A DNA stretch of 64,000 nucleotides from an uncultured Dehalococcoidales bacterium (GTDB lineage Bacteria; Chloroflexota; Dehalococcoidia; Dehalococcoidales; UBA5760): the NCBI GenBank assembly GCA_964472625.1, contig CAYYLM010000002.1, positions 9,366 through 73,365 of the forward strand. The letters are read 5' to 3'. The notes beneath the pieces were generated by a model that saw only the letters and a list, made by a program, of their open reading frames with translations, searched no databases and had not been told where the DNA came from. Positions 25,076 to 55,835 of the stretch are shown here, piece after piece. The translations under genes and the position numbers were made by a program. The first letter of the stretch is position 1. Every line of letters begins with the position of its first letter.

Positions 25076-25339
25076 GTTATAATGTTAGCCTAGTGACTAG
25101 AAAGGGGTATGAATGGTTAGAAGGGCCGAATCTGAATGCACATATTTGTTCAGAGGGGTCAATCATCAGCAAAAATGGGGCACAATGGGTAGATTTTGAA
25201 GACACATTAGATTATATTGTTCAATAAAATGCTGGCTATGTTGGCTTATCCTCTTGACTTAGGTTCAGGGTGTGACACAGTTCATTATCTAGAATTTAAT
25301 ATAACCTGGCTCGACTCCTGTATTACAGATCTACTAATG

Positions 25340-26293: not shown

Positions 26294-26384
26294 GAGTCGC
26301 CTCCTGCTTTTCCCGTCTAGGACAAATAGTAGCAGTTCTCCTAATGATGAATCAAGACTAGAACTGACGTCTTTTTGGTAAAAA

Positions 26385-26456
26385 AGCGGGTGAAGGGATT
26401 CGAACCCTCGACGTCTTGCTTGGGAAGCAAGCACTCTGCCACTGAGTTACACCCGC
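26385..26456 (-). tRNA. tRNA-Gly(CCC)
   Basis: GCGGGTG/CACCCGC acceptor, CTTGC-TTCCCAA-GCAAG anticodon arm, GTTCGAATC T-loop, U discriminator, CCA not encoded; TTGATT-17-TAGAAT promoter upstream. Confidence 0.95.
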
Positions 26457-26565
26457 ATCTGTGGCCTGTGCGTAGATTCTACTCCATAAATAATGGAAAA
26501 TCAACCTGTAGACTGCTTAACTTGAGAATATCCTAAGATACTAATAACCGCCTCAACTTCCTTAT

Positions 26566-38338: not shown

Positions 38339-40048
38339 ATGCTTTCCAGGCTAACGGGGGAAAGACAGGGGCAATACTCTAGAATCTTCGGCTGGCTGGC
38401 ATTGAGCATTATCCTGTCCTTACTGCTGGTGGTATTCCCGGCTGTACCTGCTCAGGCTCAGGTTGAGCTTTTTCTTGATCCGACTGAGGGTAAGGTCGGC
38501 GACAAGGTTTATGTTACGGGCACTGAGTTTGAGCCCGGGGAGTATTTTTATCTCTATTTCTCCAGTGATAAGGCTAGCATCGGTAGTTACATTGAGGAAA
38601 AACTCACTCATTACAAGCTACTGGAGAGGAATATCAAACCGAATGAGGAGACTGACCCGCTTCCCGGTGAATTTTATACCCAATTCCGTGTCCCCGATAA
38701 ACTTGACGATGGCGAAGATATTGAGGATGTGCATGGTGGTGAGCATTATGTCTATGTTGCCACTCGTATTGACAAGCAGATAGTTGCCTATGCCACGTTC
38801 AGCGTACCCCATGGTGAAATTGAGCTGACCCCAGAAGCAGGGACGGTAGGTTCTGAAATTGAGATTAGCGGCCAGGGGCTTCGCCCTGACCAGCAGATCA
38901 CCATTAAATACGATGGCAAAGAAGTTAACATAATAAGTGGTGATACCAAGACTGATGGCGACGGCGGGTTCATCAGCACTATTACGGTTCCCGAGGGGCC
39001 GGCTGACGACTATATCATAACTGCGATTGATGAGTCGGGCAATCGGCCGGAAGCGGAGTTCAGGGTAACGCCAAAGATATCCGTAAGCCCCACGTCACAG
39101 GATGTAGATGAGATGGTGGAGGTTAGAGGCACCGGCTTTGGTGTCAGAGAGCGGGTTACCGTTACTCTGGATGGCACTGAGATTGTCACGACTCCGGTAA
39201 CCCTGCATACCACTCGCCTTGGCAGTCTTGGCGGGAGTTTCGTGATACCACCGCGCCCAGCTTATACCGATGGTAGCCTGGTTAAGGTACGGGTCCGCGA
39301 TGAAAGTGATAATGTGGCTGAGACCGAATTGACTGTTCTACCTATCCCGGCTTCCATCTGGCTAAATCCGGCTACCAGCCTGGACGCACCGGGTCACGTC
39401 GGTATGGGGCTTACTGCCAGCGGCATCTGGTTTGTGCCCGGTGCCACCATTGACATCACTTATGATAATGGTGAGACCTCAGCGATTGCCACCACTGAGG
39501 CGCTTGATAGTAGAAATTTTTCGGTGACCTTCACGGTACCGCCCAGTGTTCCCGGTAGCCATACGGTAACCGCCAGTGATGGCATCAATAGTGTAGCCGC
39601 TGTCTTTACCATGGAATCAGAGAGACCGCTGACGCCAGTGCCACTATTGCCAAAAGCTGCCGCCCCGCTAGAGGCTGAGGGGCTTTTTGACTGGGAGGAC
39701 GTTAGCGACCCCAGTGGCATAACCTATGTGCTTCAGGTCGCGGGCGATAGTGATTTTGCCTCCGTAGTGCTGGAGAGGGGAGAGCTAGCTGACTCAGAAT
39801 ATACTATTAGTGGAGAGGAGAGGCTTAGGCTAGCCGAGAGGCAGACTCCCTATTACTGGAGGGTGAAGGCAGTCGATGGTACCTTTAGTGAGAGCTACTG
39901 GATGATATCCATCCCGTTCTATGTTGGCAGTCCTCAAGGAGCACCACTGCCCGGCTGGATGAAGTATTTATGGATTGGTGTTGGCTGTGGCCTGGCTGCT
40001 TACTTTATAACAAGGGCATGGAAGAAGCATGCCGAGTCGCCTGACTAA
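38339..40048 (+). CDS. Cell-surface protein with Ig-like (IPT/TIG-like) repeats, FnIII-like domain and C-terminal TM anchor
   Basis: Signal peptide; repeats of P..G.VG..I.I.G.G...F; WEDVSDPSGITYVLQ..YYWRVKAVD; hydrophobic tail followed by KK. Confidence 0.75.
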   Translation: MLSRLTGERQGQYSRIFGWLALSIILSLLLVVFPAVPAQAQVELFLDPTEGKVGDKVYVTGTEFEPGEYFYLYFSSDKASIGSYIEEKLTHYKLLERNIKPNEETDPLPGEFYTQFRVPDKLDDGEDIEDVHGGEHYVYVATRIDKQIVAYATFSVPHGEIELTPEAGTVGSEIEISGQGLRPDQQITIKYDGKEVNIISGDTKTDGDGGFISTITVPEGPADDYIITAIDESGNRPEAEFRVTPKISVSPTSQDVDEMVEVRGTGFGVRERVTVTLDGTEIVTTPVTLHTTRLGSLGGSFVIPPRPAYTDGSLVKVRVRDESDNVAETELTVLPIPASIWLNPATSLDAPGHVGMGLTASGIWFVPGATIDITYDNGETSAIATTEALDSRNFSVTFTVPPSVPGSHTVTASDGINSVAAVFTMESERPLTPVPLLPKAAAPLEAEGLFDWEDVSDPSGITYVLQVAGDSDFASVVLERGELADSEYTISGEERLRLAERQTPYYWRVKAVDGTFSESYWMISIPFYVGSPQGAPLPGWMKYLWIGVGCGLAAYFITRAWKKHAESPD

Positions 40049-40091: not shown

Positions 40092-40463
40092 CTATTCTGC
40101 TTCTAGAGTAATCTGAGCTGTCTTACCCTTCTTAGTCACTTGGGCCACCGGGGGCATATCCCTGAGGATATCCAGTAAGGGGATGGGACTCTCTGCGGAG
40201 ACAACAATCTCGGTACCTTCAGCTACGGAACCACCAATCAACACTAGCTGCAGTTCTGGAACCTGAGACAAGTGCTCTTCTAATTTCCTGACCTGACCTG
40301 AGTCTACTGGTGGCACTATTGTCAGTCTCACTGTGCCCTTATACAGTTCCGTACCTGATTCTTTGCCTTCCTTCTTGGCTACTTGCTCTGTCTCTTTCTT
40401 GGCTTGGGCTTTCGCCTTCTTAGCTTCCTTTTTGGCTCTTTCCCCGTCTTCTTTAGCTTCCAT
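40092..40463 (-). CDS. Hypothetical protein
   Basis: Charged N-terminus and a compact ferredoxin-like C-domain (LYKGTVRLTI...); GGAGAG ribosome-binding site. Confidence 0.65.
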   Translation of the reverse strand: MEAKEDGERAKKEAKKAKAQAKKETEQVAKKEGKESGTELYKGTVRLTIVPPVDSGQVRKLEEHLSQVPELQLVLIGGSVAEGTEIVVSAESPIPLLDILRDMPPVAQVTKKGKTAQITLEAE

Positions 40464-40790: not shown

Positions 40791-41087
40791 GTGGAGATGC
40801 CGAGTCACGAAGAGATTAACCCTATGTTGACGACGAGTGAGGTGGCTCGTCTGCTTAATGTGCATATCAATACGGTAAGGCGGTGGAGTAATCAGGGAGT
40901 ACTAAAGACATACCGTATCGGCACGCGTGGTGATCGCCGGTTTCACCGTGAAGATATCGCCACTTTCCTTTCGCAGAAGTCGAAGATGGCCAATCTAGAT
41001 ACTGAGATGGAAATCCCCTCCCTATCAGACCAATCGTCAGGAAGTCGCCAGAACCTACCAGCGTCGGTAGCCTATGACCGTAAGTAA
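40791..41087 (+). CDS. Excisionase/MerR-like HTH (HTH_17, BldC-like) DNA-binding protein
   Basis: LTTSEVARLLNVHINTVRRWSNQGVLKTYRIG.RGDRRF. Confidence 0.85.
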   Translation: MEMPSHEEINPMLTTSEVARLLNVHINTVRRWSNQGVLKTYRIGTRGDRRFHREDIATFLSQKSKMANLDTEMEIPSLSDQSSGSRQNLPASVAYDRK

Positions 41088-41110: not shown

Positions 41111-41791
41111 ATGAACAAAATCGTGGTAATGATAATTGATGAGGAAGCATTCTTTAGAGCTGGCGTGCGTCAGGCACTTGCTCAACAGACTGACTTCGAG
41201 GTATTGGATTGTGATCCGTCTGATAGCCCATTAGATATGATTGACGCTAGTCTTCCCAATATTGCCCTGCTCGGCTCAGCCCTCGGTGCCCACAGTGGAC
41301 TAGAATTGGGAAGAAAAATCGCCCGCTATTACCCCAATACCAAGGTAATAATGCTGAGTCCCAATCCTGATGATGAAGAGCTCTTTGAGGTTATCAAGAC
41401 AGCGGCCGTAGCCTGCTTAAACAGGAATACCGCTGCTGATGAGCTCGCTAACACGATAAGGCGGGCATCTCAGGGTGAATACCCAATAAATGAGAGCCTT
41501 ATGACAAGACCCAAGGTCGCCCAGCGGGTGTTAAAGCAATTTGAAGATATCTCATCGATGGGTAGGGCGATCGAAACAGTAATTGCACCCCTCACCCGTC
41601 GTGAGACGCAGATTCTGGACTACGTTGCTGAAGGCAATACAAATAAGCAAATTGCTGATATCTTGGGGATTAGTGAGCAAACGATTAAGAGCCATGTCAG
41701 TGCTATCCTTCGCAAGCTGAATGCTAATGATAGGGCTCATGCTGTTGCCCTAGCCATTCGTAATGGTTGGATTTCACCAGGTGAGAAATAG
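41111..41791 (+). CDS. NarL/LuxR-family response regulator with atypical receiver
   Basis: LTRRETQILDYVAEGNTNKQIA..LGISEQTIKSHV LuxR HTH; phosphoacceptor Asp replaced (IALLGS). Confidence 0.88.
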   Translation: MNKIVVMIIDEEAFFRAGVRQALAQQTDFEVLDCDPSDSPLDMIDASLPNIALLGSALGAHSGLELGRKIARYYPNTKVIMLSPNPDDEELFEVIKTAAVACLNRNTAADELANTIRRASQGEYPINESLMTRPKVAQRVLKQFEDISSMGRAIETVIAPLTRRETQILDYVAEGNTNKQIADILGISEQTIKSHVSAILRKLNANDRAHAVALAIRNGWISPGEK

Positions 41792-41874: not shown

Positions 41875-44283
41875 ATGGCTAATCTGAGTAAAGAGAAGGT
41901 TGCGAGTAAGAATGATGAGTTTGATTCTCGCCAGTCAGTAAAGCTTAATGCCTTTGAGTCACTAGGAGGGGGAGGCAAAGTGCCACAATTGGAGATTGAC
42001 CTTAAACTAAGTGACCAGATTTGGGAATATCTGCGCAAGCAGGGTTACAAGGTAACCGAGGGGGCAAGGCTCGTCGGCAAGTCGGGGGTTGAGCATACCT
42101 TTGACATGCTGGCGCAGAGGGATGACGGTTTTATCAGCTACACTATGGCGATATGCATTGCGGCTGGGGGAGATAAGGAAGCAGAGGTACAAACTATTTT
42201 CAACTTCGCCAACAAGGCCTATGATACTGGTATTATTGACCGGGTGCTTATTGCTGTCCCGGAGATTAGTCCTGAGGCGAAGCAACTGGCTGGTAAACAG
42301 CGGATAAAGGTTATTGAAGCCGAAAAGATGGGGGCTTTGCTTGACACTAAGCCTGTGGCGCAGCTTAAGCCTGGGGAGCCACTTAGGTTTGAGACACAAG
42401 CAGAGCTGGTGAAATCTTTGCTGAGTCGGGGTTACCAGGTCGAGGAAAAGGCTAAGGTTAAGAGCCGATCTGGGGTTGAGTATAGCTTTGACATACTGGC
42501 TTATGTTGATATGGATGGGGCTAATCACAGCCTAGGTATCGACTTTCTGAGTGCGGAGAAGGAAGTAGGTTTGGATCAGGTATCCATATTTGATACTAAA
42601 GCCTACGAGGTTGGCATTGATGATAAAGTCATTGTTGTCTCGCCGGTGCTTAGCCTGGAAGCGAAGCAGTTTGCCCAGCATCAGCGAATAAGGGTTTTCG
42701 AAGTGGGCGCAAAGCCAGCTTCCAAGGATTCAACGTCAGCAGAGGAAGCAACTAAACCTGATTCGGCTAAGGTTAAAACGAGACAGCTACGGCAGATGGT
42801 TCAGGCTGAGGCATTACAAATGATACCCGAGGTGATGGCAAGAAGGTATAATGCCGTACCACTAACTCTCTCGGGTAACACGCTGAAGGTTGCTATGGCC
42901 GACCCGACCGATATCTTTGCTCTGGAGGCTTTCTCTGCCCAGAGTAAAAAGAGGATTCAACCGATAGGCGCCAGTGCTAAGGAAGTCAGGGAGGCTATTG
43001 ACTTTAACTACAAAGGCCATAGCGAGATCGAGAAGCAGATTGCTCATATCTCTATCCCGGCCGATGCCCTTGATGAAAGGCTGGCCATTGATGCGGCTAT
43101 TGATGCCCCTCTGGCTCAGGCTCTTAACCTTATTGTTGAGGAAGCGGTGAGAGCACACTCATCTGATATTCACATTGAACCCGAGGAGGATAGGGTGAGG
43201 GTACGCTACCGCATTGATGGTACCCTTCAGGATATGATGTCTCTACCGGTGACGGTGCATCGTGCTGTTATTTCTCGAATTAAGATTTTGGCTGATATGA
43301 ATATTGCTGACCACCATCGTCCTCAGGATGGACAGTTTTCTACTAAAGCCAAGGGGCGAGAGATAGATGTTCGTGTCGCTACCGCACCTACCGTCTTCGG
43401 TGAGATGGCGGTGCTGCGGCTTCTTGACAAAGCTCGGGCTACTTTGGGGTTATCGGAACTTGGTTTCTTGCCAGATAGCCAGGCCAAGTACGAAAGTTTG
43501 CTCAAGGTACCCTATGGTATGCTCTTGATCAGTGGTCCCACCGGAGCCGGGAAAACCACCACCTTATACGCTTCCATTAATTCCCTTGATACCATGGGGC
43601 GGAACATAATTACGATTGAAGACCCGGCCGAGTATCGGTTTAAGGATATTAATCAGATTCAGGTTAATTCTCAGGCTGGCATTACCTTTGCCCGAGGACT
43701 GCGGTCGATACTCCGTCTTGACCCCGATGTTATCATGGTCGGCGAAATACGTGATGTTGAGACAACTCAAATCGCAGTTCAGTCAGCTTTGACTGGGCAC
43801 CTGATGCTTACCTCCATCCACGCTAGTGATGCGGCTGGTGTACTCACCCGTCTCATTGACCTCGGAGTTGAGCCGTTCTTGATCGCTTCCTCCGTTATTG
43901 GTGTTGTCGCTCAGCGGATGGTGCGTCGCATTTGCCCGGATTGCGGCCACCCTATTGAGGCACCCCTGGTGGAAAGACTGGCTTATGAAAAGGAGATGGG
44001 GGAGGAAAAGACCGAGTTTTTATACGGTACCGGTTGTGCTACCTGTGCCTATACTGGTTATGTGGGCCGAACCGGAATCTTTGAGATTCTGGTGGTGAGT
44101 GATGGCATCCGAGCTCTGGTTACTAATCGAGCTAATAGCAATGAGATTCGTTCTCTGGCGTTTGAGGAGGGGATGAGGGCAATGATGAATGATGGTATGC
44201 GCAAGGTGCAAAGCGGGATTACTACCCCGTCTGAAGTGCTGCGCAGTGCCTACTCCCCCGACCTTAGGCCTGAAGCAAAATAG
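41875..44283 (+). CDS. pilB: Type IV pilus extension ATPase PilB/GspE with two N-terminal restriction-endonuclease-like repeats
   Basis: GSPII_N region, GPTGAGKTT, TIEDPAEY, LRLDPDVIMVGEIRD, HLMLTSIH, CPDC..GCATC Zn motif. GTG 41980 is an alternative start with a GGAGG site. Confidence 0.9.
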   Translation: MANLSKEKVASKNDEFDSRQSVKLNAFESLGGGGKVPQLEIDLKLSDQIWEYLRKQGYKVTEGARLVGKSGVEHTFDMLAQRDDGFISYTMAICIAAGGDKEAEVQTIFNFANKAYDTGIIDRVLIAVPEISPEAKQLAGKQRIKVIEAEKMGALLDTKPVAQLKPGEPLRFETQAELVKSLLSRGYQVEEKAKVKSRSGVEYSFDILAYVDMDGANHSLGIDFLSAEKEVGLDQVSIFDTKAYEVGIDDKVIVVSPVLSLEAKQFAQHQRIRVFEVGAKPASKDSTSAEEATKPDSAKVKTRQLRQMVQAEALQMIPEVMARRYNAVPLTLSGNTLKVAMADPTDIFALEAFSAQSKKRIQPIGASAKEVREAIDFNYKGHSEIEKQIAHISIPADALDERLAIDAAIDAPLAQALNLIVEEAVRAHSSDIHIEPEEDRVRVRYRIDGTLQDMMSLPVTVHRAVISRIKILADMNIADHHRPQDGQFSTKAKGREIDVRVATAPTVFGEMAVLRLLDKARATLGLSELGFLPDSQAKYESLLKVPYGMLLISGPTGAGKTTTLYASINSLDTMGRNIITIEDPAEYRFKDINQIQVNSQAGITFARGLRSILRLDPDVIMVGEIRDVETTQIAVQSALTGHLMLTSIHASDAAGVLTRLIDLGVEPFLIASSVIGVVAQRMVRRICPDCGHPIEAPLVERLAYEKEMGEEKTEFLYGTGCATCAYTGYVGRTGIFEILVVSDGIRALVTNRANSNEIRSLAFEEGMRAMMNDGMRKVQSGITTPSEVLRSAYSPDLRPEAK

Positions 44284-44292: not shown

Positions 44293-45501
44293 ATGGAGTA
44301 TTCTTATGTAGCGTATACCAGGGATAAAAAATTAGTGAAGGGCAAGCTCTCGGCGACCAACCAAGAGGCAGCAGCTGGTGTGTTGAGCTACGGTGGCTAC
44401 CAGGTGCTTAGCCTTAAGCAGGTGGTTCCCTTCTTTGATACGGGAAAGCTGGGCACCAGTTTCTCCCGGGTAAAGCCGACAGAAATCATAATGTTCTCCC
44501 GCCAGCTGGCTTTACTACTTGAAGCTGGCACTGATATTGTTACCGCTTTGGAGTTATTACAGAACCAGACAACTAGCCATACCCTGAAGAGGGTGATTGC
44601 TGAGGTGGTCGCTGACATCCGTGCTGGTAGCTCGCTGTCAAAGGCGCTAAGTAAGCACCCGCGGGCTTTCTCGCAACTTTACCACCGGGCAATATCGGCT
44701 GGTGAGCAGGGTGGTAATCTGGAGGAGACACTTAGGCAGATGGCAAATCATATCGAGAGGGCCACCGTCACGGAAAAGAAGATAAAAGGAGCCCTGCGCT
44801 ACCCCATTATTGTTTTTATCATTGCGATTGTTGTGGTTGGGATATTAGTTAAATTTGTTCTGCCCCGTTTTATCCTTCTGTACGCCGCGTTTGGGAGTGA
44901 GTTGCCGACACTGCCGAGGATGCTTATCGGGTTTACCAATTGGTTTGATCAGTATGGCCTCTGGCTGGTGCTGGGGGTAGTCGCTGCCATTGGCATAACC
45001 TTTGCTTATATCAAAACCCCAGCGGGCAAAATCTGGTGGCATAGAACGCTGCTTAATCTGCCGGTATTTGGGCGTATTAACCTCCTGAATCAGCTGTCAC
45101 GCTGCTGTCGCACCATAGCGCTACTATTTAAGGTTGGCGTACCGCTACCGGAGATTATGGCGGTAGCCATTTATGGCACCACCAATAATATTGTGGCTCA
45201 GGAGTTGACTGAGGTGCAACAGGAGTTGCTTAAGGGTGAGGGCTTATCCCGTCCTATGGGCAGGCGGAAGCTGTTTCTGCCCCTGATGGTGCAGATGACC
45301 GGGGTCGGTGAGGAAACCGGTAACCTCGATAAAACACTAACTACGGTAGCGCAGGCCTATGAGGCTGAGGCTGAGGACAAGACCAGCGCGGCGGTAGCTA
45401 TGATCCAGCCAATGATGACGATGGTTATTGGTGGCATTGTTGCCTTTATTGCAATCGCTCTGGTGCAGGCTATGTATTCTGTCTACGGGAACTTCGGTTA
45501 A
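44293..45501 (+). CDS. pilC: Type IV pilus/T2SS platform protein PilC/GspF
   Basis: FSRQLALLLEAG, AGEQGGNLE, GEETGNLD, IQPMM. Confidence 0.92.
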   Translation: MEYSYVAYTRDKKLVKGKLSATNQEAAAGVLSYGGYQVLSLKQVVPFFDTGKLGTSFSRVKPTEIIMFSRQLALLLEAGTDIVTALELLQNQTTSHTLKRVIAEVVADIRAGSSLSKALSKHPRAFSQLYHRAISAGEQGGNLEETLRQMANHIERATVTEKKIKGALRYPIIVFIIAIVVVGILVKFVLPRFILLYAAFGSELPTLPRMLIGFTNWFDQYGLWLVLGVVAAIGITFAYIKTPAGKIWWHRTLLNLPVFGRINLLNQLSRCCRTIALLFKVGVPLPEIMAVAIYGTTNNIVAQELTEVQQELLKGEGLSRPMGRRKLFLPLMVQMTGVGEETGNLDKTLTTVAQAYEAEAEDKTSAAVAMIQPMMTMVIGGIVAFIAIALVQAMYSVYGNFG

Positions 45502-45514: not shown

Positions 45515-45874
45515 GTGATGAAAGGTGAAAAGGGGTTTTCCTTTATTGAGGTAGTAATTGCCCTGGCGATACTGGGTATAATTGCGGTTGGCTTTCTTGG
45601 TGGTTTAGGTACTGCCTCAAGGGGTCTCCTCACTGCCGATGAGCGAGAGACGGCTAATAACCTGGCCGAAGCTCAGATGGAGTATGTGAAAAACCTGCCT
45701 TACAGCGTTGCCTACTCGAAGTCAACGGCAATCCTTGGTGAATATGAATATTATGATGTTGAGATAGTTACCACCTCCCTGGAGGATGGAAATATTCAGA
45801 AAATAGAGGTGACGGTAAGTCATCAGGATAAACCAGAGGTAATTACTCTGGCGGATTACAAGGTGAACCGATGA
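45515..45874 (+). CDS. Minor pilin (PilV/GspI-like)
   Basis: Class III signal KG|FSFIEVVIALAILG. Confidence 0.85.
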   Translation: MMKGEKGFSFIEVVIALAILGIIAVGFLGGLGTASRGLLTADERETANNLAEAQMEYVKNLPYSVAYSKSTAILGEYEYYDVEIVTTSLEDGNIQKIEVTVSHQDKPEVITLADYKVNR

Positions 45875-46407
45875 TACTTAAAAAATTAGGCTACATAAAT
45901 AAAAAGCAGCGGGGCTTTACCCTGCTCGAGCTGATAATAGCCCTAGCTATTACCGGTGCTATCACTGGTGGACTAGCCACGAGTATCTTTCAGACGCTTG
46001 ACTACAGCGCCCGGGACAATATGCGCATGGTGGCTGTCAAGCAGGTGGAGAACGCCATCCACTACATTAACCGTGATGTCCAGATGGCTCAGATTATAGA
46101 GCCGACTGAAGACGCAGATGGTTTCCCCTTGGTCCTGACCTGGGTAGAGTGGGACGTGGACAATACCGAGCATGTGGTTACGTATAGCATAGTGGGTAAC
46201 GAGCTACAGCGTAGTCATTCCGAGGATGGTGGTACACCGACTGAACTTACACTGGCACAGCATATTGATACGGACTCGGATGACACTTATTGTGACTTTG
46301 ACGAAGATCTCTGGATATTTACCTTTAGAATAACCGTTACCGTAAGCGGCTATCCGGAAGATATAAGTGAGATGAGAGAAGTGAGGATTACTCCCAGAAC
46401 TTCATAA
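45871..46407 (+). CDS. Minor pilin (PilW/GspJ-like)
   Basis: RG|FTLLELIIALAITG; 4-nt overlap with the previous gene. Confidence 0.85.
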   Translation: MILKKLGYINKKQRGFTLLELIIALAITGAITGGLATSIFQTLDYSARDNMRMVAVKQVENAIHYINRDVQMAQIIEPTEDADGFPLVLTWVEWDVDNTEHVVTYSIVGNELQRSHSEDGGTPTELTLAQHIDTDSDDTYCDFDEDLWIFTFRITVTVSGYPEDISEMREVRITPRTS

Positions 46408-46423: not shown

Positions 46424-49234
46424 ATGATTAGAAGGATAACAGTTTTACTGCGTAGCGCCAAAAGGGAAGAGGCGGGACAGGCTTTCATCTTGGTTCTAAT
46501 CCTGCTGTTGGTGGGTGGTCTCATCATTGCGCCACTGCTAGCCTTTATGGGTACCGGCCTCCAGAGTGGTCAGGTTTTCGAACAGAAGACGAGTGAGTTA
46601 TATGCCGCTGATGCCGGCATCGAGGATGGTATTTGGCAGGTGCAGTTTGATGAACTCGAGTCACTCAGTAGCCCCACGGTCTATAGCGTGTATGACTACA
46701 GCACGGTGTGGGATTTCCAGCTGGATGAGCAGGTAAACGAAGAGGACGTGACGGGCACCATTGAGAATGTCTGGATTCCCAAGGATTTGGCAGCGCCCGG
46801 TGAGGCTCAGGCGGAGGATATTATTGAGGGGGTTGATGGTAAACCCCCCAAAGCGGTAGTAACCGGCACTGTTCCCGACACAGAAGAATATAAAATCAAG
46901 ATAACCTATAATAAGGAACAAGAGGACGTCTATCAATACGGTGATGAATTCGTAATAGAAGAGATCGGGATATGGCTACCGCCCGGGTTTGAATATGTAG
47001 TTGGCTCCAGTAACCTCGAGGCTGACTCCTTCGCTGATTATTATTCGGTGCCGGTAGTCTCAGATCACTCCGGGGGACAGGCGGTCATCTGGAGCTTCAG
47101 CTCAGTTCCTATGTCTGTTTTCCCGGGTGTGAATCCGTCGGACATGCCCATGGTGACTCAGGTCACCTTCCAGTTTACGGCGCGCCGGGAGGGAAGTAAC
47201 CCCGAAGCCCTGTCCTGGGTAGATACCAATATGAACTTGAGTGGCAGTATTAGTTATGCCTGGGATGCCGACACCAAGGTTTATAAGATTACCTCTCAAG
47301 CTGGCGATACCAACCTTGAAGCCCATACCGCCAAGACCGAGCTACGCGAGGTCGGTGGGGCGATAGCGGGAGACTACCGTGCCATCGGCAACACCCTGAT
47401 GACCAACGAATACGGCGGTTCGACTCCGGTGGTGCGGGATACTCTGCTGGCTGAGAGCGATGCTACTGTCAGTGATATCCCCGACAGCGCCGAGATCCAG
47501 GCGGCTTATCTCTACTGGTCAGCCTGGCTGGAAGAGGAGCTGGAGCAAGAGTCTGGTGACACGACGGTATTCGAAGACGACTGTTCCAACTTCAGTAATT
47601 GGAATAATCCGGGTAATGATTGGGTAATCTCCAGTGGCACTTTCCGGGGGCATCATTATGGCAGTGCCCAGTATAGATTCCTGACCCTGCAGTCAAGCCT
47701 AGACCTGAGCTCATATTCAGGTAAACTGACGACCGTTTACTGGCAGCAGTGGGAATATGGTACCCTGGAGAGTAATGACTACCTCTGGCTTGCCTTTTCC
47801 GGTGATGGCGGCAGCAGCTGGAGCAGCAATATTGTGGCCTTCAGCAATGATATCGGGAGCACGCCGCAGGATTTCAGCTACACCATTCCGGATGAGTATC
47901 TCACCGCTAACTTCAAGATGAGACTTCAAATAGGTGACGATAATGGCTGGGTTGGCGGTGGCGAGTACTGCTTTGTCGATAACATTGGTATCTCGGTATC
48001 CAATGCCATACTTTATGATGACTGTTCTGACTTCGTAGCTGGCCCTATTAATTGGACTAACGGTAGCCACTGGACAATCTACAACGGTGATGAATTTAGG
48101 GGGCAGGGTGGGGGCAGTACCGCCGATAGGCGTCTCACCATGACCGACAGCCTGGATTTAAGTGCCTACTCCGACAAGACGATTGTCGTCTCCTGGGAGC
48201 AACGTGAGAGCGGGTACCTAGAGTCCAGCGACTATCTCTACTTTGCCTTCTCCGGCAATGGTGGCAGCAGCTGGAGCAGTAATATTCAGGCCTTCCGTGA
48301 TGATATCGGGAGCACACCACAGGAGTTCAGCTACACCATTCCAGAGCAGTATCTTACCGCCAACTTTAAGATGAGGTTTTACCTCTACTTCAACTATTAT
48401 AATGAGTACGCCTATGTTAACAATATTACTATCTATGAAACCTCAGGGGACGCCTGGGCCGATGCCACGGCTATCTTCAAGATAGATGGCACCCAGGTTT
48501 ACTTTGATGAATATGGAGTCCCTCAGACGGGTGGGGAGGAAATAGTTGCTTCGGAGTGGACAATCCTGGAAAATCAGACCGGCGAGTATTCCTATGCCTG
48601 CTTCTTGGACGTGACCGACCTGGTGCAGGCGTTTAGTGCTGAGGGTGATGATGGCAATCACCCCGGTAACGGCGCCTATACCGTCGGGGGAGTGTATGGG
48701 GATACCGACGATGAGTGGTCCTATGCCGCCTGGTCGCTGATACTTGTCTACGCCAGCGCGGAGACGTATGGTCACCAGCTCTATCTCTACGATGACTTTG
48801 TCTACTCGAGTATGGACGTCAATGTTGATTTTAATGGTGACGGGCAACCGGGTGGTCGAATCAGTGGCTTTCTGGTTCCAGAACAGATTGAAGGCGAGGG
48901 CGACGATGCCGATGCCGCTACGATGACCTGCTTTGTCGGTGAGGGAGATGATTACTATAACTACGACTATTTTAGGTTCGAGGGAACCAACCTCTCCGAC
49001 GGTAGGAGCTCTAATGATGTCTGGAACTCATGGTCGGTTGGGCTGGTAGAGGACGGCATTGATATTGACACCTTCCATGTTACCTGGGGGAGTGGCCTGC
49101 TGGAGGCTGGGGATACCTCGGCTCAGATAGACCTGCCTACCCAGACTGATTCCTGGAACCTAGTGTATATCATCCTTTCTTTCCGCAGCGAGGTCGTCGC
49201 TGGGGGCACTATTAGCTACTTGATAAAAAGTTAG
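46424..49234 (+). CDS. Large PilX/GspK-like tip pilin-adhesin with tandem internal beta-sandwich domains
   Basis: EAG|QAFILVLILLLVGG prepilin lacking Glu5, AADAGIEDG PilX motif, very acidic, two internal repeats. Confidence 0.75.
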   Translation: MIRRITVLLRSAKREEAGQAFILVLILLLVGGLIIAPLLAFMGTGLQSGQVFEQKTSELYAADAGIEDGIWQVQFDELESLSSPTVYSVYDYSTVWDFQLDEQVNEEDVTGTIENVWIPKDLAAPGEAQAEDIIEGVDGKPPKAVVTGTVPDTEEYKIKITYNKEQEDVYQYGDEFVIEEIGIWLPPGFEYVVGSSNLEADSFADYYSVPVVSDHSGGQAVIWSFSSVPMSVFPGVNPSDMPMVTQVTFQFTARREGSNPEALSWVDTNMNLSGSISYAWDADTKVYKITSQAGDTNLEAHTAKTELREVGGAIAGDYRAIGNTLMTNEYGGSTPVVRDTLLAESDATVSDIPDSAEIQAAYLYWSAWLEEELEQESGDTTVFEDDCSNFSNWNNPGNDWVISSGTFRGHHYGSAQYRFLTLQSSLDLSSYSGKLTTVYWQQWEYGTLESNDYLWLAFSGDGGSSWSSNIVAFSNDIGSTPQDFSYTIPDEYLTANFKMRLQIGDDNGWVGGGEYCFVDNIGISVSNAILYDDCSDFVAGPINWTNGSHWTIYNGDEFRGQGGGSTADRRLTMTDSLDLSAYSDKTIVVSWEQRESGYLESSDYLYFAFSGNGGSSWSSNIQAFRDDIGSTPQEFSYTIPEQYLTANFKMRFYLYFNYYNEYAYVNNITIYETSGDAWADATAIFKIDGTQVYFDEYGVPQTGGEEIVASEWTILENQTGEYSYACFLDVTDLVQAFSAEGDDGNHPGNGAYTVGGVYGDTDDEWSYAAWSLILVYASAETYGHQLYLYDDFVYSSMDVNVDFNGDGQPGGRISGFLVPEQIEGEGDDADAATMTCFVGEGDDYYNYDYFRFEGTNLSDGRSSNDVWNSWSVGLVEDGIDIDTFHVTWGSGLLEAGDTSAQIDLPTQTDSWNLVYIILSFRSEVVAGGTISYLIKS
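47567..48438 (+). repeat. Two ~145-codon tandem repeats inside the adhesin gene (47567-47995 and 48011-48438)
   Basis: Shared DDCS.F...SLDLS.YS.K...LES.DYL..AFSG.GGSSWSSNI.AF..DIGSTPQ.FSYTIP..YLTANFKMR; nucleotide similarity is visible at 47791-47920 vs 48245-48374. Confidence 0.85.
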
Positions 49235-49263: not shown

Positions 49264-49887
49264 ATGAAATTTGGTAAGGTAGCTCAATTAGCTCTGGCGA
49301 TTGGCATTTTCGCCATCGCGCTTATCTTCCTCTACCGCATGAACCAGGGGCGGGCGGCCGAGCATGAACAGCTCAGTGCCCAGCTGGATGTGGCCCAGCA
49401 ACTGCTGCCCCAGCTCGTTTCTGAAAGTGAGGATTTGGAAAGCCGCCTTAACCAGCTGCAAGCTGAGCTGGATCAGGCTAATGCCTCGCTTAGTGAGGGT
49501 AAAGCAAGGTTTCCCCTCTCCATAGATGGCATTAGGTACGACGAGTTATTATGCCAGATGGCTCATGACCGTGACCTGGAGGTAATGAGACTGGTCACTT
49601 CGGAGCCAACCGAGCGAAAAGTGGAAGAGGTTACCTATACCATCAGCTCTTTTGATCTGGAAGTGATGGGTCAGGTGGCTGACATCCTCGATTTCGTTAA
49701 TGCCATAGCCATCGGTGAAGACTTTACCACGGCTACCGTGGAGCTGGTGGATATTAAGGTTCCTGAGCCGATAACCATGCAAGAGGAGGAGGCGTTAGCT
49801 GGGCAAGAGCAGGAAGAGGAGGAAGAGGAACCAGAGGCGCCATCAGCTGTTATTAAAGTGAATATCTATAGCTACAAAGGGGATTAG
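49264..49887 (+). CDS. PilO-like alignment protein
   Basis: N-terminal TM, coiled coil, ferredoxin-like C-domain; position in the pil operon. Confidence 0.65.
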   Translation: MKFGKVAQLALAIGIFAIALIFLYRMNQGRAAEHEQLSAQLDVAQQLLPQLVSESEDLESRLNQLQAELDQANASLSEGKARFPLSIDGIRYDELLCQMAHDRDLEVMRLVTSEPTERKVEEVTYTISSFDLEVMGQVADILDFVNAIAIGEDFTTATVELVDIKVPEPITMQEEEALAGQEQEEEEEEPEAPSAVIKVNIYSYKGD

Positions 49888-49889
49888 AT

Positions 49890-51431
49890 ATGGCCGAAGT
49901 TACTCTATTTATTGAAGATAGTGCTGTCAAGCTACTGGTAGCCAGAGGCCGGCGGGTAGAAAAATGGGCGAAGCTACCGCTGGAGCCGGGGCTGGTTAGC
50001 GATGGCTTGATCCTTGATGAAGCCAAGGTAGCCGATAAGATTCGTGAGCTCTTTAAGCTACAAAAGGTAGGGGCAAGAACGGTAGTGGCTGGTTTAAGCG
50101 GATTCAATTCGGTTTATCGTTTGATTTCGCTACCTGAGCTACCGGAGGCAATCCTTCCCGAGGCGGTAGAGCAGGAGGCAAGTCGAGTGATACCGGTGCC
50201 CCGGGACCAGGTCTACCTGTCGTATCAGTTGATGCCTACCTCGGCTGCGGAGACATTAATCTTCTTGGCGGCTTTTCCTCGCAACACCACCGACGCTCTG
50301 CTCCGGACGCTGCAGAAGGCTGGGCTGAGGGCCGATGTTTTGGACTTAGCTCCTTTAGCTCTGTGTCGCACTGTTGATGCTCCGGAGGCGATAGTTGTCG
50401 ACGTCAGTTCAGCCAGCCTTGATATTGCCATTATATTGGAAAGGATACCTCAGGTAATTCGTAGCCTCTCTCTTCCCGGTGAGGCACAGTCGCTGGCGGA
50501 ACGGCTGACGACTATTGTTGAGGAGCTTAATCGAACTATTGCCTTCTATAACTCCAGTCATCGTGATAAGCAGTTAGCAACCTCAGTACCTATATTTGTC
50601 TCTGGTGACCTGGCTCAAGCGCCGGACACCTGGCAGTCGCTCAGCGGTACGGAGGGCTATCCTACCTCAGCCTTACCATCGCCGATGGAGCCAATCGAGG
50701 GATTTGACCCGAGTCAATTCATGGTCAATATTGGGCTGGCGCTCAAGCAGCTACCTCTTGAGAAAGAAGCAGCTAACTTCTCGATAGTAAACTTCAATGC
50801 TCTACCACACGCAGAGAAGCCCAAGAAGAAGGTATCTCCAGCCAGCATTCTTCTGCCCATTATTATTGTCCTGGGCTGTGGCGGGGTTTTCTATATGTTT
50901 AACCTTGGCCGGAATGCTGAGGCTGGTAATGAGCTTTTACGTGCCCAGTTGGAGCTTACCCAGAGCCAAATTCCTGAGCAGCAGGCGGTAAAGACAGGGC
51001 TTGAGGAGCAGCTTGCCGAGCTAGAACCCCAGATTGAGCCCGTAAAGGCTGAAGCTGACATCTTTAATACTACCTTTGCCGACGTGCAGGAGGGGCGCAA
51101 CCGGATTGACCAGGAGGTGACTCAGATTGCGCATCTGGTGCCGGAGGAGGTAGCTTTAGTTTATGGTGGTGATGAGATAATGGGGTATGATGCACCTATA
51201 TGTGAAGCTAGCATTAAGCATACCGGTGATGAAGTAACAGTAGTCGGCAGGAGCCAAGACCTAGACGCCATCTTTAAGTATGCTAGAGGTTTAAGAGCTA
51301 GTGGTGGCTTCTCCGAGGTCATTATCTCATCTATTGAAGCTTATGAAGTTGTAGTATCGGAAGAGGGTGAGGAGGAGGAAGAAGAGGAAGTAATTAGGGG
51401 GTATAACTTCCAGTTTACCCTGCTACAGTAG
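49890..51431 (+). CDS. pilM: PilM-PilN fusion protein
   Basis: Actin-like PilM domain (EQEASRVIP, LDLAPLAL), TM, coiled coil, PilN-like C-domain (VVGRS...YARGL..SGGFSEV). Confidence 0.75.
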   Translation: MAEVTLFIEDSAVKLLVARGRRVEKWAKLPLEPGLVSDGLILDEAKVADKIRELFKLQKVGARTVVAGLSGFNSVYRLISLPELPEAILPEAVEQEASRVIPVPRDQVYLSYQLMPTSAAETLIFLAAFPRNTTDALLRTLQKAGLRADVLDLAPLALCRTVDAPEAIVVDVSSASLDIAIILERIPQVIRSLSLPGEAQSLAERLTTIVEELNRTIAFYNSSHRDKQLATSVPIFVSGDLAQAPDTWQSLSGTEGYPTSALPSPMEPIEGFDPSQFMVNIGLALKQLPLEKEAANFSIVNFNALPHAEKPKKKVSPASILLPIIIVLGCGGVFYMFNLGRNAEAGNELLRAQLELTQSQIPEQQAVKTGLEEQLAELEPQIEPVKAEADIFNTTFADVQEGRNRIDQEVTQIAHLVPEEVALVYGGDEIMGYDAPICEASIKHTGDEVTVVGRSQDLDAIFKYARGLRASGGFSEVIISSIEAYEVVVSEEGEEEEEEEVIRGYNFQFTLLQ

Positions 51432-51447: not shown

Positions 51448-52518
51448 ATGGATATTTTTTCCTTGCTTCGTGAAGCAGCATCAAAGGGGGCCTCAGACCT
51501 ACATATGGTCGTCTCTAGCCCGCCCTTACTGCGCGTGAATGGTCTGCTTGAGGCGGTAAACGGCACCAAGCTACTAACTGCCAATGAGATAAACCAGGCG
51601 TTTCTTCAGATAACTACCCCTGAGCAAAGAGAAAGCTTCCATCACCATCTGGAGCTTGATTTTAACTATTCCCTGTCTGAGGTTGGGCAGCTTCGTTGCA
51701 ATGCCGCTCAGCAGCGCGGGGCAATCAGCCTTGCCGTGCGTCTGTTGCCGGCGGAGGTTCCGACTATAGATGAGCTGGAGCTGCCGGCAATATATAAAGA
51801 GCTTGCCATGAAACAGAGGGGTTTGATCGTAGTTACCGGTCCTACCGGCAGTGGTAAATCCACCTCACAGGCGGCCATGATTCAGCATTTGAATGAAAAT
51901 GAGAGCCGTCATGTGGTTACTATTGAGGACCCCATTGAGTATGTCCATCCCAGTATTAAGTGTGCCATAACCCAGCGTCAGCTGGGCAGTGACACTCTCT
52001 CCTTCGCTGAGGCGCTAAGGCGGGTCCTAAGGCAGGACCCAGATGTGATTCTGGTCGGCGAGATGAGAGACCTGGACACTGCGGCTGCGGTACTGTCTAT
52101 CGCTGAGACCGGGCATTTGATACTGACCACCGGTCATGCGCCCAGTGCCAGCCAGGCGGTGGAGAGGGTGATAGACCTGTTTCCGCCTCACGAGCGTCCT
52201 TTGGCTCAAACGCGGTTGGCGTCTCTGCTGGTAGCGGTGCTTTTTCAGACGCTCGTCCCCAGGATTGACGGCTCGGGGAGAATAGCGGCTACTGAGATTC
52301 TGCTGGCTAATGCGGCGGCACGTAACCTTATCCGGGAAGGCAAAACCTATCAGCTGCCCAATGTAATCCGCACTAGCCGGGAAATCGGTATGGTTTCGCT
52401 TGATGAGGCGCTGGTTAACCTTTACTTAAAACGCATCATAAGCTATGAAGCCGTGCTTACTTTCTGCTGGGATCGCAAGGAAGTGGAAAAGCTCACTGGT
52501 AGCGTGGGTATAAAGTAG
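51448..52518 (+). CDS. pilT: Type IV pilus retraction ATPase PilT
   Basis: GASDLH, GPTGSGKST, TIEDPIEY, LRQDPDVILVGEMRD, AARNLIREGK (AIRNLIRE-like). Confidence 0.92.
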   Translation: MDIFSLLREAASKGASDLHMVVSSPPLLRVNGLLEAVNGTKLLTANEINQAFLQITTPEQRESFHHHLELDFNYSLSEVGQLRCNAAQQRGAISLAVRLLPAEVPTIDELELPAIYKELAMKQRGLIVVTGPTGSGKSTSQAAMIQHLNENESRHVVTIEDPIEYVHPSIKCAITQRQLGSDTLSFAEALRRVLRQDPDVILVGEMRDLDTAAAVLSIAETGHLILTTGHAPSASQAVERVIDLFPPHERPLAQTRLASLLVAVLFQTLVPRIDGSGRIAATEILLANAAARNLIREGKTYQLPNVIRTSREIGMVSLDEALVNLYLKRIISYEAVLTFCWDRKEVEKLTGSVGIK

Positions 52519-52826: not shown

Positions 52827-53228
52827 CTAATAACCGTCGTCGGTCTGGGTGACTACGCCTTCTGTGGTAACATTATAGGTGCCGACCAGTATTTCGTTAC
52901 CGCCCATGATAAAGGTGCCTACATCTGAAGTACCAACAACCACATCTGAATCAGCATCTAGCTCGCCACCTGCTGTAGTGGAGACTCCTTCGGAAGCCAT
53001 GGCGGCAATCACCGCGGTCTGGACGTTGGCTAATTCTGTGGCTGCCGCCTCTGATTCGCCCTCATCCATGAAGCCAGCGATATTGGGGATGGCGACCGCA
53101 GCCAGCACGCCCAGGATGGCGACCACCACAAGCAGTTCAATCAGGGTGAAACCCTTCTGCCCGCGGCGGAACTTCCTAGCAAACCTCTTCTCGCCGTAGT
53201 GAAGCCTTCTCATTAGTGTCTTCATCAT
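52827..53228 (-). CDS. pilA: Major type IVa pilin
   Basis: KG|FTLIELLVVVAILGVLAAVAIP; start at ATG 53228 after AAGGAGGTG; own promoter. Confidence 0.88.
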   Translation of the reverse strand: MMKTLMRRLHYGEKRFARKFRRGQKGFTLIELLVVVAILGVLAAVAIPNIAGFMDEGESEAAATELANVQTAVIAAMASEGVSTTAGGELDADSDVVVGTSDVGTFIMGGNEILVGTYNVTTEGVVTQTDDGY

Positions 53229-53293
53229 TTGTTGTTTCACCTCCTTTCTCAAATTTATGATGAAGCTTAAGTGATTTCTAGTGACTTAAGTCC

Positions 53294-53552: not shown

Positions 53553-54920
53553 CTAGCCAGGTGAGTCTAGCTTCTCGACTTCAAAGGCCTTGATACGTTG
53601 CCTTTCCACAAACTGTTTAGCCTCCTGGCTGAGCCCAGGGGAGGCAATGAAAACCTTGTCCTGAATACCGGTATCATAGGCCTTATCATCAAAATCAAAC
53701 ACCTTGTCCAGTTCTACCGGTTTGTCGCTTGCCTCAATGCCGATGGCAATGCGGTGGGTAACGATGCCGTCATCCCTGATAGCCAGAATATCTATATTGT
53801 GTTCGGCACCAGACCGGCCCTTAACCGCAGTATTTTTCTTGACCTCATAGGCATGTCGCTTCAGGTGTTCTATTAGCTGAGAAATGGACTTGAATTCAAA
53901 TGGCTCCTTCTCTGTTTCTACCGCCAGTGATGGGGTAGCTCTGGCCAGTACTGTCTTCAGATCCTCAAGCGGCAGCACCTTAATCCTCTGGTGACTGGCA
54001 AACGTAGCTGCTTCCTTGTCTAACGGCGGGTCAACAAGCAAGACCTTCTCATGAACGCCAGTGTCGTAGGCTTTGTCATCAAATTCAAATACGTCTCGCA
54101 GAGAGACTATATCCCCAGCGACTTTAATCCCGATGGCAATATCATAAGTTATGATGCCATTTTCCCTGGTTGCCAGGATATCAAAACTATGTTCGGCACC
54201 CGACCGACCCTTTTTAGTGGCATTTTCACTAACCTCAAAACCGCGCTGTTTCAGAAACTCGGTGAGCTGGGCTTTAGGCTTGAGCTCAAACTCCAGCCAA
54301 CTTCTTTTGGCTTCATCAAGGCTGTAGGAATAGACGTTTACCTCGGCGACTTTATCCTCGCTGGTGATCGAGGAACATTTCAGGCAGCGCCATTTCATTA
54401 TCGGTGCGGGGAAAACGTCACCGCAGACATGACACTTGTGCATTAGACCTTGGCTCCGATAGTCGCTTTCGAGCTTTCTTAGCTCCGATTTGCACTTAGG
54501 ACATATGAGTCTCCCTTGAGTTGCAAACTCGTCTTCAAGCCCGACATATCCGCAGATAGAGTGTTCTAGGACCCGGCCGCGAGCAATGTTGCCGGAACCA
54601 CACTTGGGGCAGTGGGTGGTTGGTCTCAGATTCACTGACTGGCACTGAGGACAGTGGAGAAACCGGTCAAAGAAGTCCTTATTGAGAATACCCTTACTAG
54701 CCAGGGACTCCAGAACTGATACCGCTTCTTGCCCCGTGATCTCCAGTGTTTCTTCGACGAAGGGATAGGTAAAGCCCATGTCGCTGGTGAAATCAAGCTC
54801 GGGTTTAATATCAGTAACGTTCTCCGCCAGCATTTTCGTCACCAGTTTGGTGATTTTTTCATCGCCTATTAGACTGGGGAGAGCGTTGGCTGGTTCTGGA
54901 GCTTCACTATCTTCCGCCAT
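53553..54920 (-). CDS. Multi-Zn-ribbon (TackOD1-like) protein with two C-terminal restriction-endonuclease-like repeats
   Basis: CPQC, CPKC, H..CG, CPKC, CHVC and CLKC motifs; two GRSGAEH.(F/I)DILA...FDDKAYDTG...QRIK repeats homologous to the PilB N-terminus. Confidence 0.75.
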   Translation of the reverse strand: MAEDSEAPEPANALPSLIGDEKITKLVTKMLAENVTDIKPELDFTSDMGFTYPFVEETLEITGQEAVSVLESLASKGILNKDFFDRFLHCPQCQSVNLRPTTHCPKCGSGNIARGRVLEHSICGYVGLEDEFATQGRLICPKCKSELRKLESDYRSQGLMHKCHVCGDVFPAPIMKWRCLKCSSITSEDKVAEVNVYSYSLDEAKRSWLEFELKPKAQLTEFLKQRGFEVSENATKKGRSGAEHSFDILATRENGIITYDIAIGIKVAGDIVSLRDVFEFDDKAYDTGVHEKVLLVDPPLDKEAATFASHQRIKVLPLEDLKTVLARATPSLAVETEKEPFEFKSISQLIEHLKRHAYEVKKNTAVKGRSGAEHNIDILAIRDDGIVTHRIAIGIEASDKPVELDKVFDFDDKAYDTGIQDKVFIASPGLSQEAKQFVERQRIKAFEVEKLDSPG

Positions 54921-55037: not shown

Positions 55038-55835
55038 GTGGAAGGTGCCCTGATCGCCATATTTACCATACTGGGGATGGTCATCGCTAGTTTCCTTAAT
55101 GTCGTGATTGACCGCTTGCCCCAGAATGAGTCGATTGTTTCTCCTCCCTCTCATTGTCCTTCTTGTCAGCGTCGCCTGGCTGCCAAAGACCTGATCCCCG
55201 TTTTTAGCTACCTGTGGCTGCGCGGTCGCTGTCGTTATTGCCGGGCTCCAATTCCTCGGCGGATATTGGGGATGGAGATTACAATCGGGGCGCTACTGCC
55301 GCTTCTCTACTGGCACTATGGTTTGAGTGCGGCACTGGGGATTATGGCTTTCTATTGCTGCCTGTTCATTATGCTCCTGGTGATTGATTGGGAGAAAGGG
55401 CTTATCCTCAACCGGCTGGTATACCCCAGCATGATAGTCGCGGTACTGTTTAGTATCTTCTTGGCCGGGAGGGTAGATGTTTTCGTGCTGGGGGGCAGAA
55501 TTGTGCAGCTGCCGCCTGGAATCGCTGACGCGGCAATCGGAGGCGCGATTGGCTTCGGGCTGGCCTTGTTGGTGGTGCTGCTTTCCAGAGGCGGTATGGG
55601 TTTTGGTGATGTCAAGATGGCGGCCCTGATTGGGCTGGTGGTCGGTTTTCCCGTCGTGTTTTTTACGCTAATTATGGCGGCAATTTTAGGTGGTGTGGTA
55701 GCGGCAATTCTGCTCCTCTTAAAGAAAAAGAAGCGGAAAGAGGCGATCCCCTTCGGTCCGTCGCTTTCGGTAGCTACTATAGTTACCCTGATATGGGGTG
55801 CCGACATCCTCATCTGGTGGCTGGGGCTGTTCTAA
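55038..55835 (+). CDS. pilD: Prepilin peptidase/N-methyltransferase
   Basis: ASFLNVVIDRLP, SHCPSC, GRCRYC, VID, GMGFGDVK, IPFGP. Confidence 0.93.
   Translation: MEGALIAIFTILGMVIASFLNVVIDRLPQNESIVSPPSHCPSCQRRLAAKDLIPVFSYLWLRGRCRYCRAPIPRRILGMEITIGALLPLLYWHYGLSAALGIMAFYCCLFIMLLVIDWEKGLILNRLVYPSMIVAVLFSIFLAGRVDVFVLGGRIVQLPPGIADAAIGGAIGFGLALLVVLLSRGGMGFGDVKMAALIGLVVGFPVVFFTLIMAAILGGVVAAILLLLKKKKRKEAIPFGPSLSVATIVTLIWGADILIWWLGLF

Follow-up and report, generated by a model that had tools for sequence, protein, structure and literature searches.

PilB-type ATPases decide when type IV pili are built, and their known inputs are cyclic di-GMP (c-di-GMP), received through the MshEN domain, and partners of the FimX/PilZ type. 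In PilB, MshE, and GspE proteins of the MshEN type (MshE, 5HTL; Geobacter PilB, 5TSG), the extreme N terminus carries a helical bundle with two RLGxx...Q motifs. Here, we analyze a 64,000-nucleotide stretch of contig CAYYLM010000002.1 (the window) from an uncultured Dehalococcoidales bacterium, in which a single uninterrupted open reading frame (ORF) on the plus strand (41875-44283) encodes an 802-amino-acid (aa) PilB/GspE-type ATPase. Like the MshEN-type proteins, this ATPase has at its extreme N terminus a module for which we propose a regulatory role, but instead of the helical bundle it has about 230 aa of tandem domains with a restriction endonuclease (REase) fold. We use the label iRE2 for the tandem pair of inactive REase-like domains and call the protein iRE2-PilB. 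We consider it an even bet that iRE2-PilB is a PilB that carries a new control module at its N terminus.

The REase fold has been put to noncatalytic use elsewhere. ERCC1 with XPF, FANCM-FAAP24, and Rpb5 are nuclease-dead REase-like folds that are dimeric and serve assembly or targeting rather than catalysis; they are eukaryotic or archaeal and bind DNA, whereas the iRE2 pair is acidic and forms one chain that is joined to a pilus motor. NACHT-associated inactive restriction endonuclease 1 (NA-iREase1; PF22722) is, like iRE2, an inactive Mrr-like accessory module of a signaling NTPase, but its partner is a NACHT/STAND NTPase, while that of iRE2 is the PilB ATPase or the TackOD1 domain. Mrr nucleases (PF04471; AF1548, 1y88) have in common with iRE2 the fold, the topology, the G-rich loop, and the first acidic/Asp pair (E73...D77). 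Unlike Mrr nucleases, iRE2 has lost the (D/E)xK of β3, has an invariant K-x-Y-D on α2 and a Q before β5, and is always a tandem pair, joined either to a motor ATPase or to TackOD1.

TackOD1 was named as an output domain found in response regulators of thaumarchaea, with its function left open (Galperin 2018, PMC5847659), and TackOD1 proteins of arCOG06883 occur in thaumarchaeal type IV pilus loci (PMC5847659; Makarova 2016, PMC4858521). Also encoded in the window is another iRE2 protein, TackOD1-iRE2, which resembles the thaumarchaeal proteins in having TackOD1 and in being encoded in a type IV pilus locus. The archaeal proteins are REC-TackOD1 of ~318 aa without iRE2, however, whereas iRE2 is added C-terminally in the Dehalococcoidia. 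The archaeal reference protein is 318 aa long, and neither Mrr nor an endonuclease is mentioned in the paper or its supplements (PMC5847659). With a reference protein of only that length, the presence of iRE2 on archaeal TackOD1 proteins was rejected, and the combination of TackOD1 and iRE2 appears to be a bacterial feature.

Domain order and conservation of iRE2-PilB

As an ATPase, iRE2-PilB is an unexceptional GspE/PilB superfamily protein. The T2SSE core, N2 plus the C-terminal domain (43099-44244, plus strand; aa 409-790), scored 426.3 bits on PF00437 (curated cutoff, 24.9 bits). The Walker A box (GPTGAGKTT at aa 554) and the His box (LTSIHA at aa 645) are intact, and the tetra-Cys zinc motif is present as CPDC at aa 687 and CATC at aa 721. 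The ATPase core and these three motifs are common to the MshEN-type ATPases, as are the α/β N1 sub-domain and a context of PilC, PilM/N, PilT, PilD, and pilins. The protein scored 508.7 bits on the PilB equivalog TIGR02538 and 533.4 bits on the GspE model TIGR02533, below the respective NCBIfam cutoffs of 675.65 and 630.25. Because both equivalog cutoffs were missed, the role of extension ATPase was assigned from gene context: PilC, PilM/N, PilD, and pilins are all encoded alongside, together with a separate PilT.

What iRE2 replaces is only the helical half of MshEN, because Vibrio cholerae MshE (5HTL) could be aligned solely from residue 71 on (residues 71-121, to window aa 306-356). Geobacter PilB could likewise be aligned only from residue 95 (95-167), to window aa 306 onward. 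The N1 α/β sub-domain follows at 42799-43014 (plus strand; aa 309-380), where PF05157 matched with 56.3 bits (cutoff, 23.1 bits) over profile positions 13 to 85 of 90, the α/β half only. An original prediction, made from the sequence of this DNA, had put the repeats in the place of MshEN. That placement stands for the helical, c-di-GMP-binding half and fails for the α/β half, which is retained. By these alignments, iRE2 sits exactly where the regulatory helical half of MshEN is lost. The RLGxxL motif had also been reported missing, and indeed the 24-residue c-di-GMP motif, which occurs in tandem in MshEN, RLGxx(L/V/I)(L/V/I)xxG(L/V/I)(L/V/I)xxxxLxxxLxxQ was not found in the 802 aa in either strict or relaxed form. 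By motif search, a hidden c-di-GMP motif was rejected both for the window PilB and for the short PilBs of a sister lineage.

Conservation of the fusion was assessed in 80 loci from species-level GTDB genomes, nearly all Dehalococcoidia. A single stop-free ORF of 764 to 825 aa spans iRE2 and the ATPase in 55 of the 80, and metagenome proteins also run across the junction (P0002, P0008, P0012, P0015, P0018, P0021, and P0024). The closest locus (L001, from a Dehalococcoidales metagenome-assembled genome [MAG]) is 79% identical to the window in iRE2 and 92% identical in the ATPase part. Mean column conservation is 0.71 to 0.72 in the repeats and 0.71 to 0.85 overall outside the linker, a Lys/Ser/Ala/Glu-rich segment (42706-42798, plus strand; aa 278-308) in which conservation falls to 0.49 and in which, at the C-terminal end of the structural model, the predicted local distance difference test score (pLDDT) falls below 50. 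The iRE2 module is under selection, because 55 species-level genomes keep one ORF and because the repeats are better conserved than the linker.

A frameshift, a missed stop, or a chimeric assembly could in principle have created the fusion, and iRE2 and the ATPase do lie in separate ORFs in L030, L043, and L058. The window ORF is uninterrupted, however, and the 55 independent assemblies, each with one intact ORF and identical domain order, and the metagenome proteins over the junction refute an artifact, to which we give next to no credence. In the three exceptions, iRE2 ends in a stop (L030, 9989-10795; L043, 10007-10870; L058, 9851-10888), and the separation may be due either to true splits or to assembly frameshift errors.

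The protein is neither rare nor unique but the standard PilB across a large Dehalococcoidia clade. Database entries for it already exist and bear automatically assigned names, for example, "general secretion pathway protein E" or "restriction endonuclease." Literature searches found no paper on a PilB of this architecture, in agreement with the earlier claim that none had been described. In a neighbor-joining tree of the modules, which is not a rigorous phylogeny, PilB-linked and TackOD1-linked iRE2 form two groups except for L053 and L055, a pattern compatible with one old fusion. We note that a longer PilB variant, the P0101 cluster (1099-1114 aa), has iRE2 at aa 13-243 and ~380 residues without a family match between iRE2 and the MshEN-like N1 plus ATPase.

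The repeat pair and its conserved residues

Two tandem Mrr-like repeats of the PD-(D/E)XK type had been predicted, and sequence profiles and structural models agree. Repeat 1 lies at 42010-42354 (plus strand; aa 46-160; best Mrr_cat stretch, aa 49-152; model elements H10-22 to E111-115), and repeat 2, with the same order of secondary structure, lies at 42397-42705 (plus strand; aa 175-277). The repeats share 38% identity (E = 8e-21), and the proposed consensus GY.V..G(K/R)SG.E(H/Y).FD.LA..F..KAY(D/E).G..EA..QRI.V can be read literally in both. When the N-terminal 302 aa were scanned alone, Mrr_cat (PF04471; gathering cutoff, 21 bits) matched in two stretches with 30.5 bits, and relatives scored 40 to 46 bits.

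Residues 34-292 were modeled with AlphaFold2 from an alignment of 38 sequences; the model reached a pLDDT of 88 and a predicted template modeling score (pTM) of 0.78, and in it each repeat adopts an α-β-β-β-α-β-α-β topology. The first Foldseek match of the model in the PDB was AF1548 (1y88; E = 7.5e-6; root mean square deviation, 3.0 Å), and further matches were the nuclease domains of Can2, Cdn1, and VC1899, as well as NucS/EndoMS, MspJI, FokI, and Bax1. A PDB search with the single N-terminal sequence returned no match, and a profile search returned only a marginal match to AF1548 (E = 0.38), which served for register only. The single inactive REase-like (iREase) domain is nearly always found as a tandem pair, and this occurrence, together with the two-domain pTM of the model, fits an obligate pseudo-dimer. 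The N-terminal domain of Rpb5 is another noncatalytic REase-like fold, and Rpb5 chains recur in the Foldseek lists of both the iRE2-PilB and the TackOD1-iRE2 models, at target-normalized TM-scores of at most 0.41.

In the family profile alignment, the β3 strand of AF1548, IECK (ExK), corresponds to LGIDFL of repeat 2, where the window protein has the Asp and lacks the Lys. The β3 strand of repeat 1, MAICIA, was matched to IECK through the equivalence of the repeats and has neither an acidic residue nor a Lys. Residues were tallied over 76 modules, 57 linked to PilB and 19 linked to TackOD1. The acidic position of β3 is Cys or Gly in repeat 1 and, in repeat 2, Asp in PilB-linked and Gly in TackOD1-linked modules. 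The Lys position is Ala, Thr, or Ser in repeat 1, with Lys in 6 of the 19 TackOD1 copies, and in repeat 2 it is Leu when linked to PilB and Leu or Glu when linked to TackOD1. No conserved Lys was found at the β3 position across the 76 modules. The Asp of the β2 "PD" is retained (D77/D206, in 54 to 57 of the 57 PilB-linked modules), as the original prediction had it in stating that the first Asp is kept and the (D/E)xK replaced. Judged by these residues, the canonical (D/E)xK is lost in both repeats, and iRE2 should be called Mrr-like and presumably inactive rather than an Mrr nuclease.

A different set of polar residues has been kept. Seven of them (S, H/Y, D, K, Y, D/E, and Q) are near-invariant in both repeats and in both protein families, although the PilB- and TackOD1-linked families are less than 50% identical overall. 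The Ser of the G-x-S-G loop (S70/S199) and the Lys on helix α2 (K114/K242) occur in 76 of 76 modules, and H74/Y203, D77/D206, Y116/Y244, D117/E245, and Q142/Q270 are also near-invariant. The set suggests a retained functional site distinct from the classical nuclease site, and from their positions in the sequence, these residues may form a binding pocket. The modules are acidic, with median isoelectric points (pI) of 5.35 and 5.64 and median net charges of about -6 and -5. The Pfam model NA-iREase1 did not match the iRE2-PilB of the window, and relatives scored 23.1 to 33.4 bits, straddling the gathering score of 27 bits. Neither iRE2 protein of the window matched a PADLOC defense-protein model, and membership in a defense system was rejected on that ground.

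The TackOD1 partner and the proposed role of iRE2

The second iRE2 protein of the window, TackOD1-iRE2 (53553-54920, minus strand; 455 aa), was detected by tblastn with metagenome relatives and consists of a winged-helix-like, multi-zinc-ribbon part followed by iRE2. Its TackOD1 domain (54318-54863, minus strand; aa 20-201) scored 144.2 bits on PF18551 (cutoff, 32 bits), and the alignment has 11 invariant Cys, the count of conserved Cys given for the domain (PMC5847659). The iRE2 part (53568-54278, minus strand; aa 215-451) scored 46 bits on Mrr_cat, and relatives are ~41 to 51% identical to the PilB module. The AlphaFold2 model (pLDDT, 86.7) had 1y88 as its top Foldseek match. In the model, TackOD1 starts with three helices and a β-hairpin, winged-helix-like, and continues with zinc ribbons; the REase part dominated the matches of the whole model, and no fold was assigned to TackOD1. 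On the minus strand, the gene immediately precedes pilA, and it is divergent from pilD; it also lies between pilA and pilD in L001, L064, L072, L076, and L009/L079. Literature searches found no paper that assigns a role to TackOD1-iRE2 proteins.

How iRE2 and PilB are arranged differs among lineages. About 60 of the 80 loci, the window included, are of a type (A) in which HTH_17 and LuxR-type regulators, iRE2-PilB, and PilC are followed at a distance by PilT. In type B loci, which belong to a sister lineage (L056, L059, L061, L066, L068, L069, L073, and L077), a separate TackOD1-iRE2 gene (447-453 aa) precedes, by 22 to 35 nucleotides (nt), the gene for a short PilB of 519 to 526 aa that has no iRE2. 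About 10 loci (type C) have TackOD1-iRE2 at their center, with pilD on one side and pilT on the other, which is also the layout seen in the window, and several loci of types A and C share a genome or even a contig (L009/L079, L006/L080, L038/L074, and L049/L071). That iRE2 neighbors PilB in one lineage and is part of the PilB chain in another is a classical Rosetta-stone pattern, which indicates coupling that is functional and often also physical. One type B example, L073 (genes at 5573-6916 and 6939-8519), comes from a MAG labeled Dehalococcoides mccartyi.

The module also extends beyond these loci. When 1.84 billion representative proteins were searched with a profile, 884 relatives were detected at an E value of ≤1e-3, 86 of them at ≤1e-30, with architectures that include REC-(Zn ribbon)-TackOD1-iRE2 (626-983 aa), CARDB-TackOD1-iRE2, and a 1111-aa PilB variant. 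The TackOD1-iRE2 family comprises 1271 clusters at 90% identity (E ≤ 1e-5), named "hypothetical protein," "restriction endonuclease," or "Holliday junction resolvase." REC-TackOD1-iRE2 response regulators of 750 to 785 aa, with iRE2 C-terminal, are encoded in L081 (4000-6357) and L083 (10001-12253); an OmpR-type regulator precedes them in both, as does a GAF histidine kinase in L083. We note a 288-aa protein (P0023, from a Logan contig of 1674 nt) in which an iREase repeat, matching window 41971-42546 at 67% identity, and an HTH_17 domain, matching window 40815-40994 at 72% identity, stand in the reverse of the window order; it probably represents a misassembled or wrapped short contig.

We propose, with a probability of about 50%, that iRE2 is a nuclease-dead, pseudo-dimeric regulatory module that is coupled to the PilB motor and links it to signaling proteins of the TackOD1 type. 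In this proposal, a covalent pseudo-dimer of REase-fold domains would replace the helical c-di-GMP-binding half of MshEN, would not cut DNA, and would act in cis on the assembly, activity, or placement of the PilB hexamer. It would also link the motor to TackOD1 proteins with the same module, by module-module contact, or, by another route, both iRE2 proteins would bind one effector at S70, H74, D77, K114, Y116, D117, and Q142 and the equivalents in repeat 2. Direct contact might be made between iRE2 and the PilB core or between one iRE2 and another. We favor a regulatory module because iRE2 is under selection, is noncatalytic by the canonical criterion, and sits at the regulatory end of PilB, and because it accompanies signaling domains and is tied to PilB in two gene arrangements. 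We infer both the regulation of PilB by iRE2 and its contact with PilB, with TackOD1-iRE2, or with both. The original prediction had proposed a new allosteric input that gates pilus assembly, an idea made more plausible by the occurrence of iRE2 on a TackOD1 protein, on response regulators, and beside a short PilB.

Several observations weigh against this proposal. Co-location of TackOD1-iRE2 with iRE2-PilB is frequent and not universal, and no TackOD1-iRE2 gene was found downstream of PilT in L021 and L030, over the ~3.7 kb available there. The placement of REC-TackOD1-iRE2 in pilus loci was unsupported at the two sites examined (L081 and L083), where the genes adjoin two-component genes and not pilus genes. 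Moreover, the pilus links of TackOD1 and of iRE2 are separate observations because archaeal TackOD1 lacks iRE2. Finally, the invariance of His, Asp, Lys, and Tyr could mean a rewired catalytic site.

The main rival explanation is that iRE2 is a ligand sensor only, which reads a nucleotide messenger or metabolite while PilB and the TackOD1 and REC proteins respond in parallel and without contact. Seven invariant polar residues at the vestigial active site, including the G-x-S-G loop, His, Asp, Lys, and Tyr, would suit a sensor, as would the place of iRE2, where MshEN binds c-di-GMP, and its fusion to varied partner domains, which is typical of sensor domains; the acidity of the modules moreover disfavors the binding of nucleic acid. 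However, neither a cyclase nor any other gene for messenger synthesis was identified in the locus, and in REC-TackOD1-iRE2, REC is already the input, such that iRE2 looks output sided. In addition, we know of no REase-fold domain that is established as a stand-alone small-molecule receptor. We regard a pure sensor as possible but unlikely. Rather doubtful, too, is the broader version in which iRE2 is a new receptor domain for a nucleotide-type messenger or small effector that replaces c-di-GMP and MshEN as the master pilus input in Dehalococcoidia, acting in parallel on iRE2-PilB, TackOD1-iRE2, and REC-TackOD1-iRE2.

Alternatively, the dead-nuclease pair might hold DNA or RNA and tether PilB and the TackOD1 proteins to DNA. 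Such a tether could serve, for instance, to bind operators and allow autoregulation or to link the retraction of pili with the uptake of DNA. The great majority of the fold family binds DNA, inactive REase domains that retain DNA contacts are known, and with its winged-helix-like start and zinc ribbons, TackOD1-iRE2 could be a transcription factor beside pilA. We nonetheless find a nucleic acid tether improbable: the modules are consistently acidic (net charge of about -6 and -5), PilB acts on the cytoplasmic side of the membrane and is bypassed by incoming DNA in models of type IV pili and competence, and the locus already has two DNA-binding regulators, HTH_17 and LuxR-type. We hold it very unlikely that iRE2 is an active, noncanonical nuclease in which His, Asp, Lys (on helix α2), and Tyr form a rewired catalytic site. 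Migration of catalytic residues within the PD-(D/E)xK fold and metal-independent His/Lys/Tyr sites in related folds are documented, and H74, D77, K114, and Y116 are invariant in every copy, which goes beyond the usual needs of a scaffold. In β3, however, repeat 1 has Cys/Gly at the acidic position and Ala/Thr at the Lys position, repeat 2 has Asp or Gly at the former and Leu at the latter, and relatives score on a Pfam model for inactive REases, NA-iREase1. Moreover, there is no defense-system signature and no obvious rationale for placing a nuclease six-fold on a housekeeping motor and on response regulators.

Should the proposed regulatory module be real, a whole Dehalococcoidia clade would have swapped the usual input of PilB for a dead-nuclease pair, in another case of the PD-(D/E)xK fold being recycled for signaling. 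The Dehalococcoidia are largely uncultured and are important in subsurface and organohalide environments. iRE2 offers a concrete candidate for a new motor-control module, and its presence on two proteins of one pilus locus makes the hypothesis directly testable. The iRE2 proteins are of soluble-domain size and can be expressed heterologously, such that a test does not depend on culturing the organism. The module may also provide the first functional lead for TackOD1, the role of which was left open by those who described it (PMC5847659).

The pilus locus and other features of the window

The genes at ~40.8 to 55.8 kb of the window make up a complete type IV pilus locus of the monoderm type. 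It begins with a small HTH_17/MerR-like regulator (40791-41087, plus strand), which is conserved upstream of iRE2-PilB loci, and a NarL/LuxR-type regulator (41111-41791, plus strand), which is directly upstream of iRE2-PilB, in a conserved position, and has a degenerate receiver. In an alignment with VraR, the receiver has Gly at the position of the phospho-acceptor Asp (LLG versus LMD). The Gly recurs in 41 of 48 related loci, and the residue two positions on is Asp in many loci and Ala in the window. The regulator probably has a pseudo-receiver that is independent of phosphorylation.

Downstream of iRE2-PilB on the plus strand are the PilC platform protein, with two T2SSF domains (44293-45501), and two minor-pilin-like genes with prepilin N termini (45515-46407). 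Next in the operon is a gene for a 936-aa protein (46424-49234, plus strand) that has a hydrophobic segment near the N terminus and matched no family significantly; it may be a large pilus-associated or tip protein. It is followed on the same strand by a 207-aa protein (49264-49887), a PilM-PilN fusion of 513 aa (49890-51431; PilM_2 at aa 20-163 and PilN at aa 441-494), and a PilT-like retraction ATPase (51448-52518). A major-pilin-like PilA (52827-53252, minus strand) is encoded immediately downstream of the TackOD1-iRE2 gene, and the PilD prepilin peptidase (55038-55835, plus strand) is encoded divergently from it.

Upstream of the pilus locus are genes for a 2-oxoacid dehydrogenase complex and lipoate genes. 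Between a surface protein with TIG/Big domains (38339-40048) and the pilus locus lies a gene for a 123-aa protein (40092-40463, minus strand) that has a Lys/Glu/Ala-rich N-terminal half and no family match. Finally, the GC content is 0.41 to 0.44 at ~22000-26500 of the window and ~0.50 to 0.55 elsewhere. This low-GC region, which contains a 467-aa ORF without a Pfam match (23529-24932) and a tRNA-Gly at its border (26385-26456), may be an acquired island.

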